64,000 nucleotides of DNA from Chloroflexota bacterium (GTDB lineage Bacteria > Chloroflexota > Dehalococcoidia > UBA2979): the NCBI GenBank assembly GCA_027593235.1, contig JAQCIU010000007.1:32001-96000 (forward strand). Direction: 5' to 3'. Shown here piece by piece: positions 58,177 through 64,000 of this stretch. Positions within the stretch are counted from its first letter, which is position 1. Every line of letters begins with the position of its first letter. Under the pieces are notes generated by a model. The model was not told where the DNA came from and did not search any database. It saw only the letters and a list, made by a program, of their open reading frames with translations. Made by a program: the position numbers and the translations under genes.

Positions 58177-59193
58177 CTAGTTGGCCCCGAGGCGCTCCAG
58201 CAACCCGTCCTCGAAGCTGAAGTCGAACGCGCGAGTCTGGTCGAGGCCTTCGCGTCGGAACCACTCGTAGGTCTGCTCGACCGCGGCCCGGAACCCGTAT
58301 TCCGGCTCCCAGCCGATATCGCCTCGAAGGCGATCGACGCTGAAGAAGACGCTCGAGTTCCAGCGGTGAATATGCGGCGCGACCTTCTGGATCAGCACGG
58401 CCGCCCCGCTGACGGTCTTCGCGTCGCCGTCCCACAGTTCGTCCATCACTGCCGGCGGTACGTACACCCGCTCCGGCTCCACGCCGACCACCTCCGCAAA
58501 CGTGTCGAGGTATCCATCGTCGGTGTAGCTATCGAGCCCGGTCAGGTTGTAGCGCTTCCCGAAGGTAACCGGGTTGCCCATCATCATCCGCAGCGCGCGC
58601 GCCTCGTCATCGACGTGCCCCACCATCCCGACGGTGGTGCCGTCGCCCGGCACCAACACCGGCCGGCCGAGGAGCAAGCGCTGGAACATGCGCTGTTCGC
58701 GGTCCGGGATGATGTTGTTCGGCCCGAACACCATCGAGAACGGCACGCTCGTCGCCGGGAACCGCTCCTGCCGGTACAGCCGGAACAGGTAGTCCTCGCA
58801 GATCAGCTTGTTGCGTGCGTACTCGCTCTGCCGCGGCGTCGCGTCGGTCGCCGAGGTCTCGCGAATCGGCAGCAGCCGCGTCGCGGCGTAGCTGACCGTC
58901 GAGCTGGCAAAGATGTAGTGCCCGACCCGCCCCTTCAGGATCTCCACCAGCATCCGCACCTGTTCGAGGTTGTAGCCACTGATGTCCTGCACGCAGTCGA
59001 ACTCGTCGTCGCCAAGGGCGGCCCGCAGCGAGTCCGCGTCGTTCCGATCGGCGGTCAGGCGCCGTACGCCGCGCGGAATCGCCGCCTCGGTGACACCTCG
59101 GTTGAGGATCGTCACCTCGTGGCCCTGCCGGTGCAGCTCGTGCACCAGCGCCAGCCCGTTGAATCGCGTCCCGCCCATCACGAGGACCTTCAT
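58177..59193 (-). CDS. NAD-dependent epimerase/dehydratase family protein
   Basis: MKVLVMGGTRFNG, YARNK. Confidence 0.88.
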   Translation of the reverse strand: MKVLVMGGTRFNGLALVHELHRQGHEVTILNRGVTEAAIPRGVRRLTADRNDADSLRAALGDDEFDCVQDISGYNLEQVRMLVEILKGRVGHYIFASSTVSYAATRLLPIRETSATDATPRQSEYARNKLICEDYLFRLYRQERFPATSVPFSMVFGPNNIIPDREQRMFQRLLLGRPVLVPGDGTTVGMVGHVDDEARALRMMMGNPVTFGKRYNLTGLDSYTDDGYLDTFAEVVGVEPERVYVPPAVMDELWDGDAKTVSGAAVLIQKVAPHIHRWNSSVFFSVDRLRGDIGWEPEYGFRAAVEQTYEWFRREGLDQTRAFDFSFEDGLLERLGAN

Positions 59194-59254
59194 GGTGTGT
59201 GTCTCCCGGTCGCCGTTCGTGCCGTTCAGCGGTCGCCCGTGTGGGTGGGCAACA

Positions 59255-59351
59255 TGGCGGGAGTGCGTGGGGGTCGAACCCACCCAGGACTACGACGTAG
59301 CCCCGCAACGGTTTTGAAGACCGCGCGCAACACCGGTCACGATCCACTCCC
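59255..59351 (-). tRNA. selC: tRNA-Sec (UCA)
   Basis: 97 nt; anticodon loop CT-TCA-AA; 6-bp D stem with 4-nt loop; long variable arm; G73 and CCA. Confidence 0.95.
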
Positions 59352-59574: not shown

Positions 59575-60252
59575 GTGGCCACAGGAAACCAGATACTCGA
59601 CGCGCTCCCTGGCGAGGAGAGCCAGCGATTGCTCCGTGATTGCACGGAGGTAACCATCGCCTTCGGTGAGGTCATCCAGGCGTCCGGACAGACACTCACC
59701 CATATCTACCTCCCAACGACCGCCGTGATCGCCCTCCTGGCAGTCGCGCCGGGCAGCGGGTCCGTCGCTGCGGCGATCGCCTCGAAGCAGGGTGCGGCGG
59801 GTATCTGCGGCCTGTACGGGCGTGCTGAGTCGCCATGGCAGATGGTGACCCAACTCCCAGGGGGTGCATTCCGCATCCCGGTTGGGCTGTTCGAGACCCA
59901 CCTGCAGCGCAGCCCCAGCCTGGCCGCCATCGCAAGACGCAACATGGGATTGTTGATCGGGGCGGTGGCGGAGACTGCGGTTTGCGGCCGTCTGCACACG
60001 TTGGAGCAGCGGTCTGCGCGCTGGTTGACCGCTGTCGATGAACTCGCCGAGAGCCGTCCCTTCCCGGCCACCGGGGAGCTACTGGCCCAGGTTCTAGGCG
60101 CTCGTCGACCAAGCGTGTCCGCCGTCCTGTCCAACTTCGTGACGCGAGAACTGCTCGCGCGTGAAGATCTCAGGATGCTGCGTGTGCGTGATCGCGATGC
60201 CCTGAACGCGCTCGCATGCGATCGAGGCCGCTTGATGCTCATCTGGCGCTGA
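59575..60252 (+). CDS. Crp/Fnr-family transcriptional regulator
   Basis: cNMP-like domain; HTLEQRSARWL; LAQVLGARRPSVS HTH. Confidence 0.85.
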   Translation: MATGNQILDALPGEESQRLLRDCTEVTIAFGEVIQASGQTLTHIYLPTTAVIALLAVAPGSGSVAAAIASKQGAAGICGLYGRAESPWQMVTQLPGGAFRIPVGLFETHLQRSPSLAAIARRNMGLLIGAVAETAVCGRLHTLEQRSARWLTAVDELAESRPFPATGELLAQVLGARRPSVSAVLSNFVTRELLAREDLRMLRVRDRDALNALACDRGRLMLIWR

Positions 60253-60420
60253 TCCGCCACGCCTCGGCCGGACCGGCGCCGCATGCGGGAGCGGCGATCC
60301 ATCGCACGAGGTCCGACCGGCGCCCGCCCCGTAGCCCGGCACACACCCTCACCCGCGCCCGCTCCGCTACGATGGCGCCACGCACAACGGCGCATTCGCG
60401 CCGGACGGACGGGAGCAGCG

Positions 60421-60936
60421 GTGACGATCGACCGCCCATCGGAAGAGGACCTCGCGCAGGCCTCGCCCGAGAACATCGCCAAGATGACGAAGTTCGTGGA
60501 GAACTTCGCCAACAAGAGCGGCAGCTATCTCCACCCGCAACGCGAGATCACGGACTTCCTGGTGATCGGCCTCGCCAAGAACATTGACGAAGTCGGCAAG
60601 CCACTCTGTCCCTGCATGTTCTTCCAGGACAAGCAGGAGGAGATCGACAAGAAGTTTTGGATCTGCCCCTGCGAGGAGATGCAGCGCTGGAAGTATTGCC
60701 ACTGACTACTCTTCTGCGACGAGGAAGGTCTTCCCGTCACCGAACACCTGCCAGAGGACCACGAGGGCCGCGAAGCTTACGGCCTGCGCGCGGATACGCA
60801 CCCTGACAAGGGTCGCGCCCTGACGCGCCTCGAGGAAAAACAGGGACGCCGCCTCGAGAAGGGCGTGCGTGCCGACGAAAGCGAGGCTCCACCACGAGGT
60901 GGCGGCGCCACCGACGAGCCGCGCAACGTGATCTAG
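60421..60936 (+). CDS. Ferredoxin:thioredoxin reductase catalytic subunit, selenoprotein (Sec at TGA 60703-60705, residue 95 of 171)
   Basis: CPC...CPC...CH(TGA)LLF; frame stays open for 76 codons to TAG; SECIS-like hairpin follows the TGA. Confidence 0.88.
60718..60738 (+). promoter_or_regulatory. Bacterial SECIS element
   Basis: GACG-A-GGAA-GGUC-UUCC-CGUC starting 12 nt after UGA; apical GGU and one bulged base. Confidence 0.8.
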
Positions 60937-60960
60937 CGCTCGTCGCTCGATCAGTACGAG

Positions 60961-60993
60961 ACAGGGGCAGCCCGACGGGCTGCCCCTGTTGTT
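60961..60993 (+). terminator. Intrinsic terminator after the FTR gene
   Basis: ACAGGGGCAGCCC-GAC-GGGCTGCCCCTGT then TGTT; 24 nt after the read-through TAG. Confidence 0.75.
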
Positions 60994-61014
60994 GTCTCGG
61001 GCACCGTCGCCGCG

Positions 61015-62058
61015 TCAGGCCCCGTCGGGCCGGCTCCCCAGGATCAGCCGATCGGCGATCTCCCGCCGCCATCGCTCGTCCGCGAACCGGCGGAGGTGCC
61101 GGTCTGTCTCTTCGAGGAACGGCGCAACACGCTCGTTGCCTTCCAGGAAGTACGCCGCGTACACCCAGGTCCCGTGTAGCCGCGTCTGCCACCACAGCTC
61201 GATGCCCTCGCGGCACTCCTCCTCGCTCAGCGTGACGTGCCGGCGGAAGCCTCGGAGGTAATGCGCCAGCAGATCGGTCTCCAACACCTGCGAGAAGCTG
61301 AGGGCGCGGACCAGCTCCCAGATCCGCGCCGCAGCCCGCGTCAGCTCCCAGTCCACCACCGCTACGACCGCGTCCTCGGCGCCTAGCAGCACCTGCTGAT
61401 CGTGAAAGTCGCCATGCAAGAGCTGACACGGCAGCTCGCCGATCGAGTCAATCGGCCGCGCCGCGCCGTTCTCCAGTAGCTCGCGCTGGAACCGCAATGC
61501 CTCCAGCACCGCCCGAGGCACACGAGGCGTGCGATCCGCCGAGGCGCGCGCCTCCACCTCGGCCAGCACCGCCAGCGAGCGCGCGGTGTTCCACGCGATC
61601 TCGCCGCTCAGCGTCGCCCAGTTCGCGCCCGGCGAACCCGGGTGCTCGGCCAGCGCCTGCTGCGTCCGCCCATGTATCGTGCCGATCGATTCCGCCTCGC
61701 TCGCCGTGATCGCGCCGCGGACGGGCATGCGACCGAGGACCCACGGGAACAACGACCAGCGCTCCGCACCGACCTCGATCACCGTCTCGCCGCCGGCGAG
61801 CGATCGAGGTGCAATCGCCGGGATTCCACGATCGGCGACCCAGCGCGTGATCGCGTGCTCGTGGCGGATCCGCTCGGCCGGCAGCTCTGGCCGGTAGCAG
61901 CGCGCGAAGACGGCGCCGCCCTCGATTGGCACGCGGAAATTGCGGTTCAGCGTGCCGGCGCTTACCCGCTCGGCTGGTCCCGCCGCGCGCAACCCGTGCG
62001 CGGTCAGCACCACCTCGAGGGCCGCGCGCTCGGACTCGGACGGCTCGGTCGACTGCAT
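61015..62058 (-). CDS. APH / homoserine kinase type II-like phosphotransferase
   Basis: GTLNRNF, LLHGDFH, VVDWE. Confidence 0.82.
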   Translation of the reverse strand: MQSTEPSESERAALEVVLTAHGLRAAGPAERVSAGTLNRNFRVPIEGGAVFARCYRPELPAERIRHEHAITRWVADRGIPAIAPRSLAGGETVIEVGAERWSLFPWVLGRMPVRGAITASEAESIGTIHGRTQQALAEHPGSPGANWATLSGEIAWNTARSLAVLAEVEARASADRTPRVPRAVLEALRFQRELLENGAARPIDSIGELPCQLLHGDFHDQQVLLGAEDAVVAVVDWELTRAAARIWELVRALSFSQVLETDLLAHYLRGFRRHVTLSEEECREGIELWWQTRLHGTWVYAAYFLEGNERVAPFLEETDRHLRRFADERWRREIADRLILGSRPDGA

Positions 62059-62112
62059 CGCGCTCCCTCGTCGACGAGCGTAGGCGCGGCGCGGGCTAGC
62101 GGGCACACGCAA

Positions 62113-62166: not shown

Positions 62167-62496
62167 TTACGCGACGACTACCTCGTCCAGGTGCTTCGCC
62201 AGGTCGCTCTTCGGGCGGAACCCGACGACCTGACCAACCGCCTCGCCACCCTTGAAGATGAGCAGGGTCGGGATCGAACGGATCCCGTACTTGCCGGCGA
62301 CCACCGGGTTCTCGTCCGTGTTCAGCTTCACGAACTTCACCTTGCCGTCGTAGTCGTCAGAAAGCTCCTCGACGACCGGCGCGACCATGCGACACGGGCC
62401 GCACCACGGTGCCCAGAAATCGACCAGTACTGGCAGGTCTGACTGCAGCACGTCGGCGTCGAAGGTGCTGTCGCTCGTATCAGTTGGGTGTGCCAT
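62167..62496 (-). CDS. trxA: Thioredoxin
   Basis: [15 protein letters not shown]. Confidence 0.97.
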
Positions 62497-62610: not shown

Positions 62611-62691
62611 CCCCGTTCGAACCGGGCGCGACACAGCCCCCACACGATCCTTCGCGGATCGGGCCGAGCACGGCCCGGGGCATTGAGAGGT

Positions 62692-63024
62692 ATGACGATG
62701 AGCGATCAGCCCACCACCGAGCAGATCCGCGCACGGCTCCGTCGCATCGAGGGGCAGGTCCGCGGCATCAGCAAGATGCTGGAGGATCGGCGCTCCTGCG
62801 AGGATCTGATCACCCAGCTCATGGCTGTCCGCTCCAGTATCGACACCGTCGGCGCGCTCGTGCTCGACGATCACCTGGGCGCCTGCCTGGATGGTGCGGC
62901 CGACCCCGTCGGGTCGTTGCGCGACTCTATGCGGCTATGGTGGCGTTTCGCCCCGGCAGCCGGCGCCATGGGCGCGGACCCGACCGAGGCCGGCGCGCAA
63001 TCACCTGTTCCGGAGTACGAGTAA
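62692..63024 (+). CDS. CsoR/RcnR-family repressor
   Basis: RLRRIEGQVRGI, Cys in RSCEDL, His and Cys in DHLGAC. Confidence 0.9.
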   Translation: MTMSDQPTTEQIRARLRRIEGQVRGISKMLEDRRSCEDLITQLMAVRSSIDTVGALVLDDHLGACLDGAADPVGSLRDSMRLWWRFAPAAGAMGADPTEAGAQSPVPEYE

Positions 63025-63069: not shown

Positions 63070-64000
63070 CTAGTCCGCGACTACCGTCGGCTCCATCGCC
63101 GCGACCACATCCGCATCGGTCTCCAGCGCCTCGTGGTCGGCGCTGATCGCCGCCCGCACCTGATCCAGCACCCCGAGGCGATCGGCCTCGTCCGCCGCGC
63201 GGATCGCGTTGGCGATCGCCTCCGCGTCGCTGCGGCCGTGGCCGATGAAGACCTTGCCGTTCACCCCCAGCAGCGGCACCGCGCCGTAGCGACGGTAGTC
63301 CAGCCGATCGCGTACCTCGCGCAGCGACGGGCGCAGCAACGCGCCACCGATCCGCCCGCGCAGCGAACGGCCCGCTTCGCGCCGCATCGCCTCGAACATC
63401 ATCTGGACGGTGCCTTCCATCAGCTTCAGGGTGGTGTTCCCGGTGAAACCGTCGGTCACGATCACCTGGTACTCGCCCGTGCTGACGTCTCGCCCCTCCA
63501 TGTTCCCGACGAAGTTGATCTGCGGCACCGCGCGCAGCAGCGCGTGCGCCTCCACGATCAACGAGGAGCCTTTCGACGCCTCCTCGCCGATCGACAGCAG
63601 ACCGACGCGCGGGTGCTCGTAGCCGTACATCGCCCGCATGTAGGCGGAGCCCATCTCGCCGAACTGGCGCAGGTGGTTCGGGCGCGCCTCGGCGTTCGCG
63701 CCGCCGTCGATCAGCAGCGTCGGTCCGCCCGGCGTCGGCAGCATCACCGCAAGGCCGGGCCGCTCTACGCCGGGGATCCGGCCGAGCGCGAGTAACGCGC
63801 CCGCCAGCATCGCGCCGGTGTTGCCCATCGACACGAATGCCTGCGCCTCGCCGCTCTTCACCAGCTCCATGCCGACCCAGATCGAAGAGTCGCGACGGCG
63901 GCGCACCTCGCGCGCCACCTGCTCGCCCATCCCAATCGCGTCGGCCGCGTGCGCAATCCGCAACGTCGAGGGCGTTCCGCCCTGACTCTCGATCTCCCGT
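63070..64000 (-). CDS. plsX: Phosphate acyltransferase PlsX, 5'-partial
   Basis: GNTGA, RPGLA, GEEASKG, DGFTGN, LLGVNG, GHGRS. Confidence 0.95.
   Translation of the reverse strand, partial: REIESQGGTPSTLRIAHAADAIGMGEQVAREVRRRRDSSIWVGMELVKSGEAQAFVSMGNTGAMLAGALLALGRIPGVERPGLAVMLPTPGGPTLLIDGGANAEARPNHLRQFGEMGSAYMRAMYGYEHPRVGLLSIGEEASKGSSLIVEAHALLRAVPQINFVGNMEGRDVSTGEYQVIVTDGFTGNTTLKLMEGTVQMMFEAMRREAGRSLRGRIGGALLRPSLREVRDRLDYRRYGAVPLLGVNGKVFIGHGRSDAEAIANAIRAADEADRLGVLDQVRAAISADHEALETDADVVAAMEPTVVAD

Follow-up and report, generated by a model that had tools for sequence, protein, structure and literature searches.

A predicted single-selenocysteine subfamily of the ferredoxin:thioredoxin reductase catalytic subunit in Dehalococcoidia, truncated at UGA in public gene calls

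The window analysed here, 64,000 nucleotides (nt) of contig JAQCIU010000007.1 from the Chloroflexota bacterium assembly GCA_027593235.1, contains at positions 60421-60936 of its plus strand a complete gene of 171 residues for a homolog of the catalytic subunit of ferredoxin:thioredoxin reductase (FTR), in which an in-frame UGA codon takes the place of a redox-active cysteine. We conclude, with high confidence, that this gene encodes an iron-sulfur disulfide reductase of the FTRc family (PF02943), and that UGA95 is decoded as selenocysteine (Sec) by means of SelB, tRNA-Sec and a selenocysteine insertion sequence (SECIS). The source assembly measures 3.39 Mb in 78 contigs, with 68% G+C and an estimated completeness of 89.66%. 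Its named relatives are metagenome-assembled genomes of Dehalococcoidia or Chloroflexota, and the host lineage is non-photosynthetic.

The coding sequence begins with a GTG codon, preceded at a distance of 5 nt by GGGAG (60411-60415, plus strand), a Shine-Dalgarno-like sequence that presumably acts in translation initiation; the start is shared by the orthologs (MTIDRPS...). Ninety-four codons lead to ...KYCH, where an in-frame TGA follows at 60703-60705 (plus strand), and the same frame then continues as LLFCDEEGLPV... for a further 76 open codons, up to a TAG stop at 60934-60936. This is the single in-frame TGA of the gene, and the first redox position, Cys65, is encoded by TGC. The original prediction, made from the sequence of the window alone, had described this very arrangement, namely, a TGA at the last cysteine of a CPC-CPC-CHC signature, LLF and 76 open codons behind it, and a terminator only after the TAG. 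Re-examination confirmed it throughout: the frame is read directly in the sequence, the position of the TGA follows from the gapless alignment given below, and the TAG is followed by a strong hairpin. The fold of 60934-61005 reaches -39.8 kcal/mol (z -4.54, equalled by none of 200 shuffles). Within it, a long G+C-rich hairpin (60956-60996, plus strand), located between the convergent genes for the FTR homolog and a phosphotransferase, is a probable terminator, although a simple terminator scan called nothing after the TAG because no clean T-run stands behind the hairpin. Public gene calls truncate the selenoprotein to 94 residues, and records of this length ending in YCH include P0054, P0071, P0085, P0090, P0105, P0118 and P0121.

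The protein is a member of the FTR catalytic-subunit family, with the FTRc fold. A Pfam search of all 171 residues returned FeThRed_B (PF02943) alone, with 82.1 bits over residues 19-103 against a cut-off of 22 (77.1 bits for the same locus in the search of the genome), and no fused rubredoxin or glutaredoxin domain. The best sequence matches among structures of the PDB, obtained with phmmer, are FTR catalytic chains (7bzk_A, 1dj7_A and 2puk_A, among others), with E-values from 2.5e-21 to 9e-20. These alignments are gapless, such that residue n of the query corresponds to residue n-8 of 1dj7_A: C63 and C65 fall on 55 and 57, C82 and C84 on 74 and 76, C93 on 85, and U95 on Cys87, the second cysteine of the CHC motif in the Synechocystis enzyme. 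The CPC...CPC...CHC pattern is thus kept, with Sec in place of the last cysteine (C63-P-C65, C82-P-C84, C93-H-U95), and this alignment to Cys87 of 1dj7_A supports a placement of selenium at what would be the cluster-proximal site. Identity to classical FTR catalytic chains is 36-39%, compared with 22-28% to the ferredoxin:disulfide reductases (FDR) 4tpu and 7pwe.

An AlphaFold model, built from an alignment of 82 rows, has a mean predicted local distance difference test score of 83.2, with residues 1-148 confident and residues 149-170 predicted to be disordered. Residues 12-104 of this model superpose on 7c3f_A, 7c2b_A and 1dj7_A over 90-93 residues (Z 12.2-12.7, root-mean-square deviation (rmsd) 1.3-1.4 Å), with the first two giving Z 12.7 and 1.4 Å over 93 residues, and Foldseek agrees on the FTRc fold with a probability of 1.00; these structure searches cover mainly residues 12-105. 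The ordered part of the C-terminal extension is predicted to comprise about 45 residues (approximately 104-148), a conserved segment that has no counterpart in solved FTR chains and is common to Sec- and Cys-containing forms. Since the Cys orthologs carry it too, the extension is not a selenoprotein-specific feature. The variable subunit of FTR (PF02941) gave no match in the 89.66%-complete genome, under a search that did find it in the control, Synechococcus elongatus. This absence is expected, since a review confines the variable subunit to oxygenic phototrophs, where it may shield the cluster (PMC9025218). The extension may be a putative replacement for that subunit, shielding the cluster in its stead.

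The sequence downstream of the TGA is conserved as protein. In a first set, loci L021-L050 of related genomes (30 in total, that of the window included), codon 95 is TGA in 29 and TGC in one (L048), and all 30 keep LLF followed by about 55 conserved residues, with the pattern LLF-x-x-x-x-GLP-x-TE-x-LP-x-x-HEG...YG...DP-x-P-x-x-GR-x-L. In a second set, the best 80 of 93 relatives, all from named Dehalococcoidia or Chloroflexota genomes, TGA and the same downstream protein were found at 80 of 80 loci. Several of these 80 genes use TGA as their genuine stop codon, and so the codon has not been reassigned genome-wide. Of 61 related genomes searched at the protein level, 39 contain the gene, as do 31 of the 36 belonging to the same family. 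In a large protein database, 1,556 relatives are on record; the full-length ones, of 133-174 residues and 50-68% identity, read CHC-LLF plus the extension. When full-length homologs were sampled from it, all 13 had CHC-[LM]LF and the common extension, while two 94-residue records stopped at YCH. In the Cys orthologs the codon is TGC, and the parts upstream and downstream of it are contiguous.

These data bear on whether the TGA could be a true stop, leaving a 94-residue protein without the last redox cysteine and, behind it, a separate small gene or non-coding DNA. The ends of the public gene calls at YCH agree with such a stop, as does the folding energy of the hairpin described below, which is not significant by itself. 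Nevertheless, the downstream residues are conserved in frame at 29 of 29 and 80 of 80 TGA loci and follow on without a break from those upstream in Cys orthologs; between the two parts, translation needs no second start codon or ribosome-binding site, and neither is seen; a protein ending at the TGA would be missing one member of the redox pair characteristic of its family; and the predicted model folds residues 1-148 as a single unit. We therefore regard a true stop as extremely unlikely.

An error of sequencing or assembly, or a recent pseudogene, would likewise produce an interrupted frame, and nothing was found in favour of either. The TGA is present at 109 loci from many assemblies. A DNA-level survey of 401 sampled Dehalococcoidia species genomes found the motif K-[YF]-C-H-TGA-x-L-F in 61 of them, one being the unpublished genome G270, and its TGY version in 43, whereas a reversed control motif matched none. 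We took Sec and Cys counts from these DNA motifs, as the tally of in-frame stops from the protein search is unreliable: the one TGA it reported for G055 is the true stop of a Cys form. Contigs assembled from runs X3, X4 and X19, which come from three other studies, show no letters other than TGA at 60703-60705, and the codon is bridged both by a DNA contig of X4 (60300-60738) and by one assembled from RNA library X19 (60570-60803, from a relative about 94% identical). With codon and frame conserved across loci, in the motif survey and in independent contigs, error, pseudogene and true stop are excluded for practical purposes, and the first two can be considered refuted, with a residual probability that is negligible. 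As a separate observation, G004, from the same family as the source of the window, contains a Cys form (contig C61) alongside TGA forms (C57 and, at contig ends, C31), reflecting either a pair of paralogs or a mixed bin.

The region immediately after the UGA has the features of a bacterial SECIS. Its core hairpin (60718-60738, plus strand), defined by fold, conservation and covariation, consists of 4 bp, a bulged A60722, 4 bp and the apical loop GGUC (60727-60730), extended to AGGUCU when the last A-U pair is taken as open. The first pair, G60718-C60738, begins 12 nt after the UGA. Among distinct Sec-form sequences, 79 of 80 have GGAAGGUCUUCC at the apex, compared with none of seven Cys forms. 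Similarly, 79 of the 80 distinct 60-nt stretches that begin at the TGA of Sec forms contain GGAAGGTCTTCC, while the adjoining third-codon positions vary freely. The sole exception, L045, has a different 5-bp stem in the same place, with a GU-containing loop. The codons involved, GAA-GGT-CTT, are used as a triplet by none of the seven Cys-form genes, and they are scarce in this genome, where GAA, GGT and CTT make up 0.229, 0.133 and 0.039 of their synonyms (product about 0.001); these frequencies come from 931 long open reading frames (ORFs) pre-filtered for a third-position G+C (GC3) of at least 0.75, which somewhat exaggerates the bias.

Covariation points in the same direction. The structure as defined is paired in 94.7% of 640 cells, against 34-62% for registers slid along the sequence, and its covariation score was reached by none of 500 shuffles. 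At pair 18-34, numbered from the T of TGA, 59 sequences have U-A, 11 have C-G and 10 leave it unpaired; the two pairings differ by a synonymous change in an Asp codon, matched by a Val/Ile change. Pair 19-33 is G-C in 70, C-G in seven and G-U in two. Ten sequences adopt a shifted register without the bulge. In run X3, the paired changes C>T at 60720 and G>A at 60736, which affect pair 18-34, occur at equal depth, consistent with a single contig. The significance of the SECIS derives from comparison across relatives and not from the energy of a single sequence. In the numbering used above, the apical hexamer AGGTCT lies at nt 24-29 in the window gene and at nt 21-26 in fdhF of E. coli K-12.

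The genome encodes the machinery that such a signal would require. A tRNA-Sec gene (selC, anticodon TCA; 59255-59351, minus strand), called by ARAGORN and matched by Rfam RF01852 with 72.7 bits (gathering score 47), lies divergent to the FTR homolog, 1,069 nt upstream of it. Elsewhere in the genome, selA (544 bits, cut-off 268), selB (299.7 bits, cut-off 242) and selD (359 bits, cut-off 125) all exceed their curated thresholds. Of ten other Sec-form genomes, eight have selA above the cut-off and one has a partial copy at a contig end (G300); selA also exceeds the cut-off in two of five Cys-only genomes. The association of selC with the locus extends to relatives, since tRNA-Sec is found in the 3-kb upstream flank at 25 of 80 loci, and in 17 of those on the opposite strand within about 250 nt; one of the 25 calls (L052) wraps around the ends of its locus and is doubtful.

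The original prediction had gone on to propose a bulged hairpin 12 nt behind the UGA with an apical AGGUCU, one codon further downstream than in fdhF, and had named as checks a conserved SECIS, Cys/TGA pairs among homologs, the sel genes and raw sequence free of TGC or TGT. All of this held up, in that the hairpin is conserved at synonymous sites in TGA forms only and with compensatory changes, natural CHC-LLF proteins with the extension exist beside TGA relatives that keep the frame, selA, selB, selD and tRNA-Sec are present, and contigs from independent runs read TGA. Its interpretation of the gene as a selenoprotein is hence supported.

Two side observations concern the same genome. First, selD (G000:C16:112734-113672, minus strand; locus L019) is itself a selenoprotein gene, with an in-frame TGA in ...SCAG-U-AGK, followed by a short GGGUC/GACCC hairpin with the loop UCGG. 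Second, the longest ORF of a gene for an NAD-dependent epimerase (58177-59283, minus strand) overlaps the 3' part of tRNA-Sec, which is on the same strand, by about 29 nt, and the true start of the epimerase probably lies further downstream than this ORF suggests. A genome-wide scan for other selenoproteins, based on a TGA with high GC3 on either side plus a hairpin with a GU-containing loop, yielded 1,875 and then 634 candidates, and was dropped since these were too many.

To place the Sec forms in the history of the family, we consider a FastTree phylogeny of 227 rows, 110 Sec and 117 Cys, computed with the U/C column and the column of position +4 masked; some of the 110 Sec rows are one genome under two handles. 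The Sec/Cys state changes only once on this tree, and consequently the Sec forms make up one clade, or the complement of one. Cys99 (60715-60717), four residues behind Sec95, is Cys in 76 of 80 Sec forms, whereas the Cys forms have Val in 104 of 111 and Cys in four. This U-x-x-x-C association could represent a second redox partner or a mere clade marker, and it is inseparable from descent because the tree offers one independent contrast.

The neighbourhood of the gene suggests a substrate. A thioredoxin gene with a WCGPC active site (62167-62496, minus strand; Pfam PF00085, 116.6 bits) lies downstream, convergent with the FTR homolog, and an ortholog of it is found just downstream at 33 of 80 related loci. 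This conserved neighbour supports, without proving, thioredoxin as the likely substrate.

In the FTR catalytic subunit, cysteines 55, 74, 76 and 85 reportedly hold the [4Fe-4S] cluster and Cys57 is said to attack thioredoxin, while in the one-electron intermediate Cys87 is reportedly bound to the cluster, later resolving the mixed disulfide. By analogy, we infer for the window protein selenium insertion, cluster binding, ferredoxin as donor, thioredoxin as acceptor and a chemical role for Sec, in a mechanism that would proceed as follows. First, the SECIS, embedded in the codons for D-E-E-G-L-P-V and located 12 nt past the UGA, would recruit SelB and tRNA-Sec. Second, Cys63, Cys82, Cys84 and Cys93 would be the ligands of the cluster, and Sec95, in the role of Cys87, would form with Cys65 a selenenylsulfide beside it. 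Third, two successive electrons from ferredoxin would open the Cys65-Sec95 bond; the attack on the disulfide of thioredoxin, the product of the conserved neighbour, would come from Cys65, and Sec95 would transiently bind the cluster and later resolve the mixed disulfide.

Several observations weigh against this interpretation, some with respect to selenium and others with respect to thioredoxin. On the side of selenium, the evidence for Sec in the protein is comparative throughout, and the contrasts between Sec and Cys forms, namely, the codons of the SECIS and the Cys at +4, amount to one evolutionary event, so that the relatives are not independent samples. The folding energy of the hairpin is ordinary (z -1.21, with 25 of 200 shuffles folding equally well), and in a context of 76 nt the fold has a z of +0.91. 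An Rfam scan of 60300-61100 at E ≤ 10 gave chance-level matches and no SECIS family, and the apical loop is 3 nt further from the UGA than that of fdhF. Moreover, selA was not found in G124, a 95%-complete Sec-form genome that does have tRNA-Sec. The lack of an Rfam match and the shifted loop, together with the inferred status of selenium insertion, would suit a readthrough of the UGA by a standard tRNA, for instance one for Cys or Trp, without SelB, the hairpin serving to stimulate readthrough or to stabilise the mRNA. This is very unlikely, however, given that the hairpin carries at its apex the hexamer to which SelB binds in fdhF, that the full Sec machinery is encoded, with selC close by in the window as well as in 25 of 80 relatives, that the codon falls on a redox-active cysteine, which is the usual site of Cys/Sec exchange, and that a sister family in the same class matches a curated double-selenoprotein model (L132, NF041072, 213 bits).

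On the side of thioredoxin, the thioredoxin gene is convergent and hence not co-transcribed with the FTR homolog, and the genome encodes a canonical NADPH thioredoxin reductase (G000:C66:52482-53381, minus strand; TIGR01292 score 359 bits, cut-off 343). With that enzyme present, the FTR homolog is not needed as the sole reductant of thioredoxin. In addition, the FDR structures 4tpu and 7pwe are also matched, at E-values of 3.1e-8 and 1.6e-3 and with Z of 6.6 and 7.3 (rmsd about 5 Å). These matches and the NADPH enzyme, as well as the missing variable subunit in an 89.66%-complete genome and a family-specific extension without counterpart in classical FTR, would fit a selenoprotein that acts as a ferredoxin-dependent reductase of some other protein or small-molecule disulfide, in the manner of archaeal and deltaproteobacterial FDR. 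Opposed to this stand the much closer relationship to classical FTR chains (36-39% identity and Z of 12-13, against 22-28% and 6.6-7.3), the lack of a fused rubredoxin or glutaredoxin domain, and the thioredoxin neighbour at 33 of 80 loci. We thus consider a different disulfide substrate an unlikely alternative, albeit one to be taken seriously, and retain the reading as a selenoprotein of the FTR type with thioredoxin as its likely substrate. The NADPH thioredoxin reductase would provide this organism with a second potential route to reduced thioredoxin.

It is tempting to speculate further that this is a lineage-wide single-Sec FTR with a natural Fe-Se(Cys) intermediate, in which selenium would provide a transient fifth bond to the cluster; that it would be the anchor selenoprotein; and that the Cys at +4 would protect or re-reduce the selenol. 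Taken jointly, these propositions are tentative, and we would expect them to fail in some part sooner than to hold as a whole. If they were true, the presence of selC beside ftr would find an explanation, because ftr, as the anchor selenoprotein, would retain the Sec machinery in aquatic Dehalococcoidia.

The remaining genes around the locus are as follows. A gene for a Crp-family regulator (59575-60252) lies between selC and the FTR homolog, and a gene for an APH-family phosphotransferase (61015-62112, minus strand) between ftr and trx. A phosphotransferase of this family occupies that slot in one of 80 loci and looks like a local insertion. Further downstream are a csoR-like gene (62683-63024, plus strand) and plsX (63070-63963, minus strand), with a CsoR-type repressor found in 23 of 80 loci and PlsX in 30 of 80. 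Ancestrally, the genes were apparently arranged as selC / ftr(U) / trx / csoR-like / plsX.

The interest of these results lies in an annotation gap, in a conserved selC-ftr-trx neighbourhood and in selenium as a prospective natural probe at the site that interacts with the cluster. Hundreds of public records are cut to 94 residues and have lost an active-site residue, and the curated selenoprotein model of NCBI covers only the double-Sec relatives, even though the single-Sec form is common, being found in 61 of the 401 sampled Dehalococcoidia species genomes against 43 for the Cys form. The mechanism of FTR depends on a cysteine bound to the iron-sulfur cluster at the stage of the one-electron intermediate; selenium at this place would provide a 77Se spectroscopic handle, and a natural Sec there would permit a direct test of the benefit of Sec in an iron-sulfur disulfide reductase.

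Selenocysteine-containing FTRs as such have been predicted before. Zhang and Gladyshev, 2008, assigned two reads of the Global Ocean Sampling (GOS) metagenome to Sec-FTR, one of them with Sec at both redox positions and a predicted SECIS, and described the two redox cysteines of FTR as forming a redox-active disulfide (PMC2398784). The second of these reads may already be of the CHU type found here. Two reviews list a Sec-FTR family with the motif CxU (PMC9312934, PMC13188914). The literature searched, figures and supplements excluded, yielded no characterised Sec-FTR of any kind, in agreement with the statement in the original prediction that such homologs had been predicted from metagenomes and that none was known to be characterised. 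The NCBIfam model NF041072 is named 'FtrB family double-selenoprotein', and the window protein scores 49 bits against its cut-off of 160. The double-Sec form is distant: with P0001 as the query, G056 aligns over residues 22-109 with 34% identity. A locus of that genome, L132 (G056:C1:1338800-1339700, minus strand, 184-648), encodes a double-Sec FtrB with CPU...CPC...CIU, scoring 213.3 bits against the same cut-off. As L132 sits in another family of the same class, both types of Sec-FTR exist in Dehalococcoidia.

Comparison with known systems places the window gene as follows. First, the SECIS resembles that of E. coli fdhF in its apical AGGUCU, in its short stem with a bulged nucleotide and in its position within the coding sequence right after the UGA; it differs in the distance of the loop from the UGA, greater here by 3 nt, and in the unrelated sequences of the stem. 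Second, the FDR of Methanosarcina acetivorans (4tpu) and the glutaredoxin-FDR fusion of Desulfotalea (7pwe) share with it an FTRc-like domain, non-phototrophic hosts and the lack of a variable subunit, but they carry fused rubredoxin or glutaredoxin domains that are absent here, and their similarity is much weaker. Third, classical FTRc or FtrB (1dj7_A, 2pu9_A, 7c2b_A) has the same CPC-X16-CPC-X8-CH(C/U) spacing without gaps, the same fold and a thioredoxin gene nearby, whereas the window protein has Sec for Cys87, no variable subunit that we could find, an extra segment at approximately 104-148 with a disordered tail, and a non-photosynthetic host. Fourth, the previously predicted Sec-FTRs belong to the same Pfam/COG family, have the CxU redox motif, a bacterial SECIS after the UGA and Cys homologs, and are likewise known only as sequences; unlike those captured by NF041072, the window protein has one Sec (CPC...CPC...CHU) instead of two, and an extension of about 45 residues. 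Sec-FTR as a kind was thus already predicted, and the window gene adds to it a new and well-supported member instead of a new class, namely, a widespread single-Sec subfamily that bears the extension.

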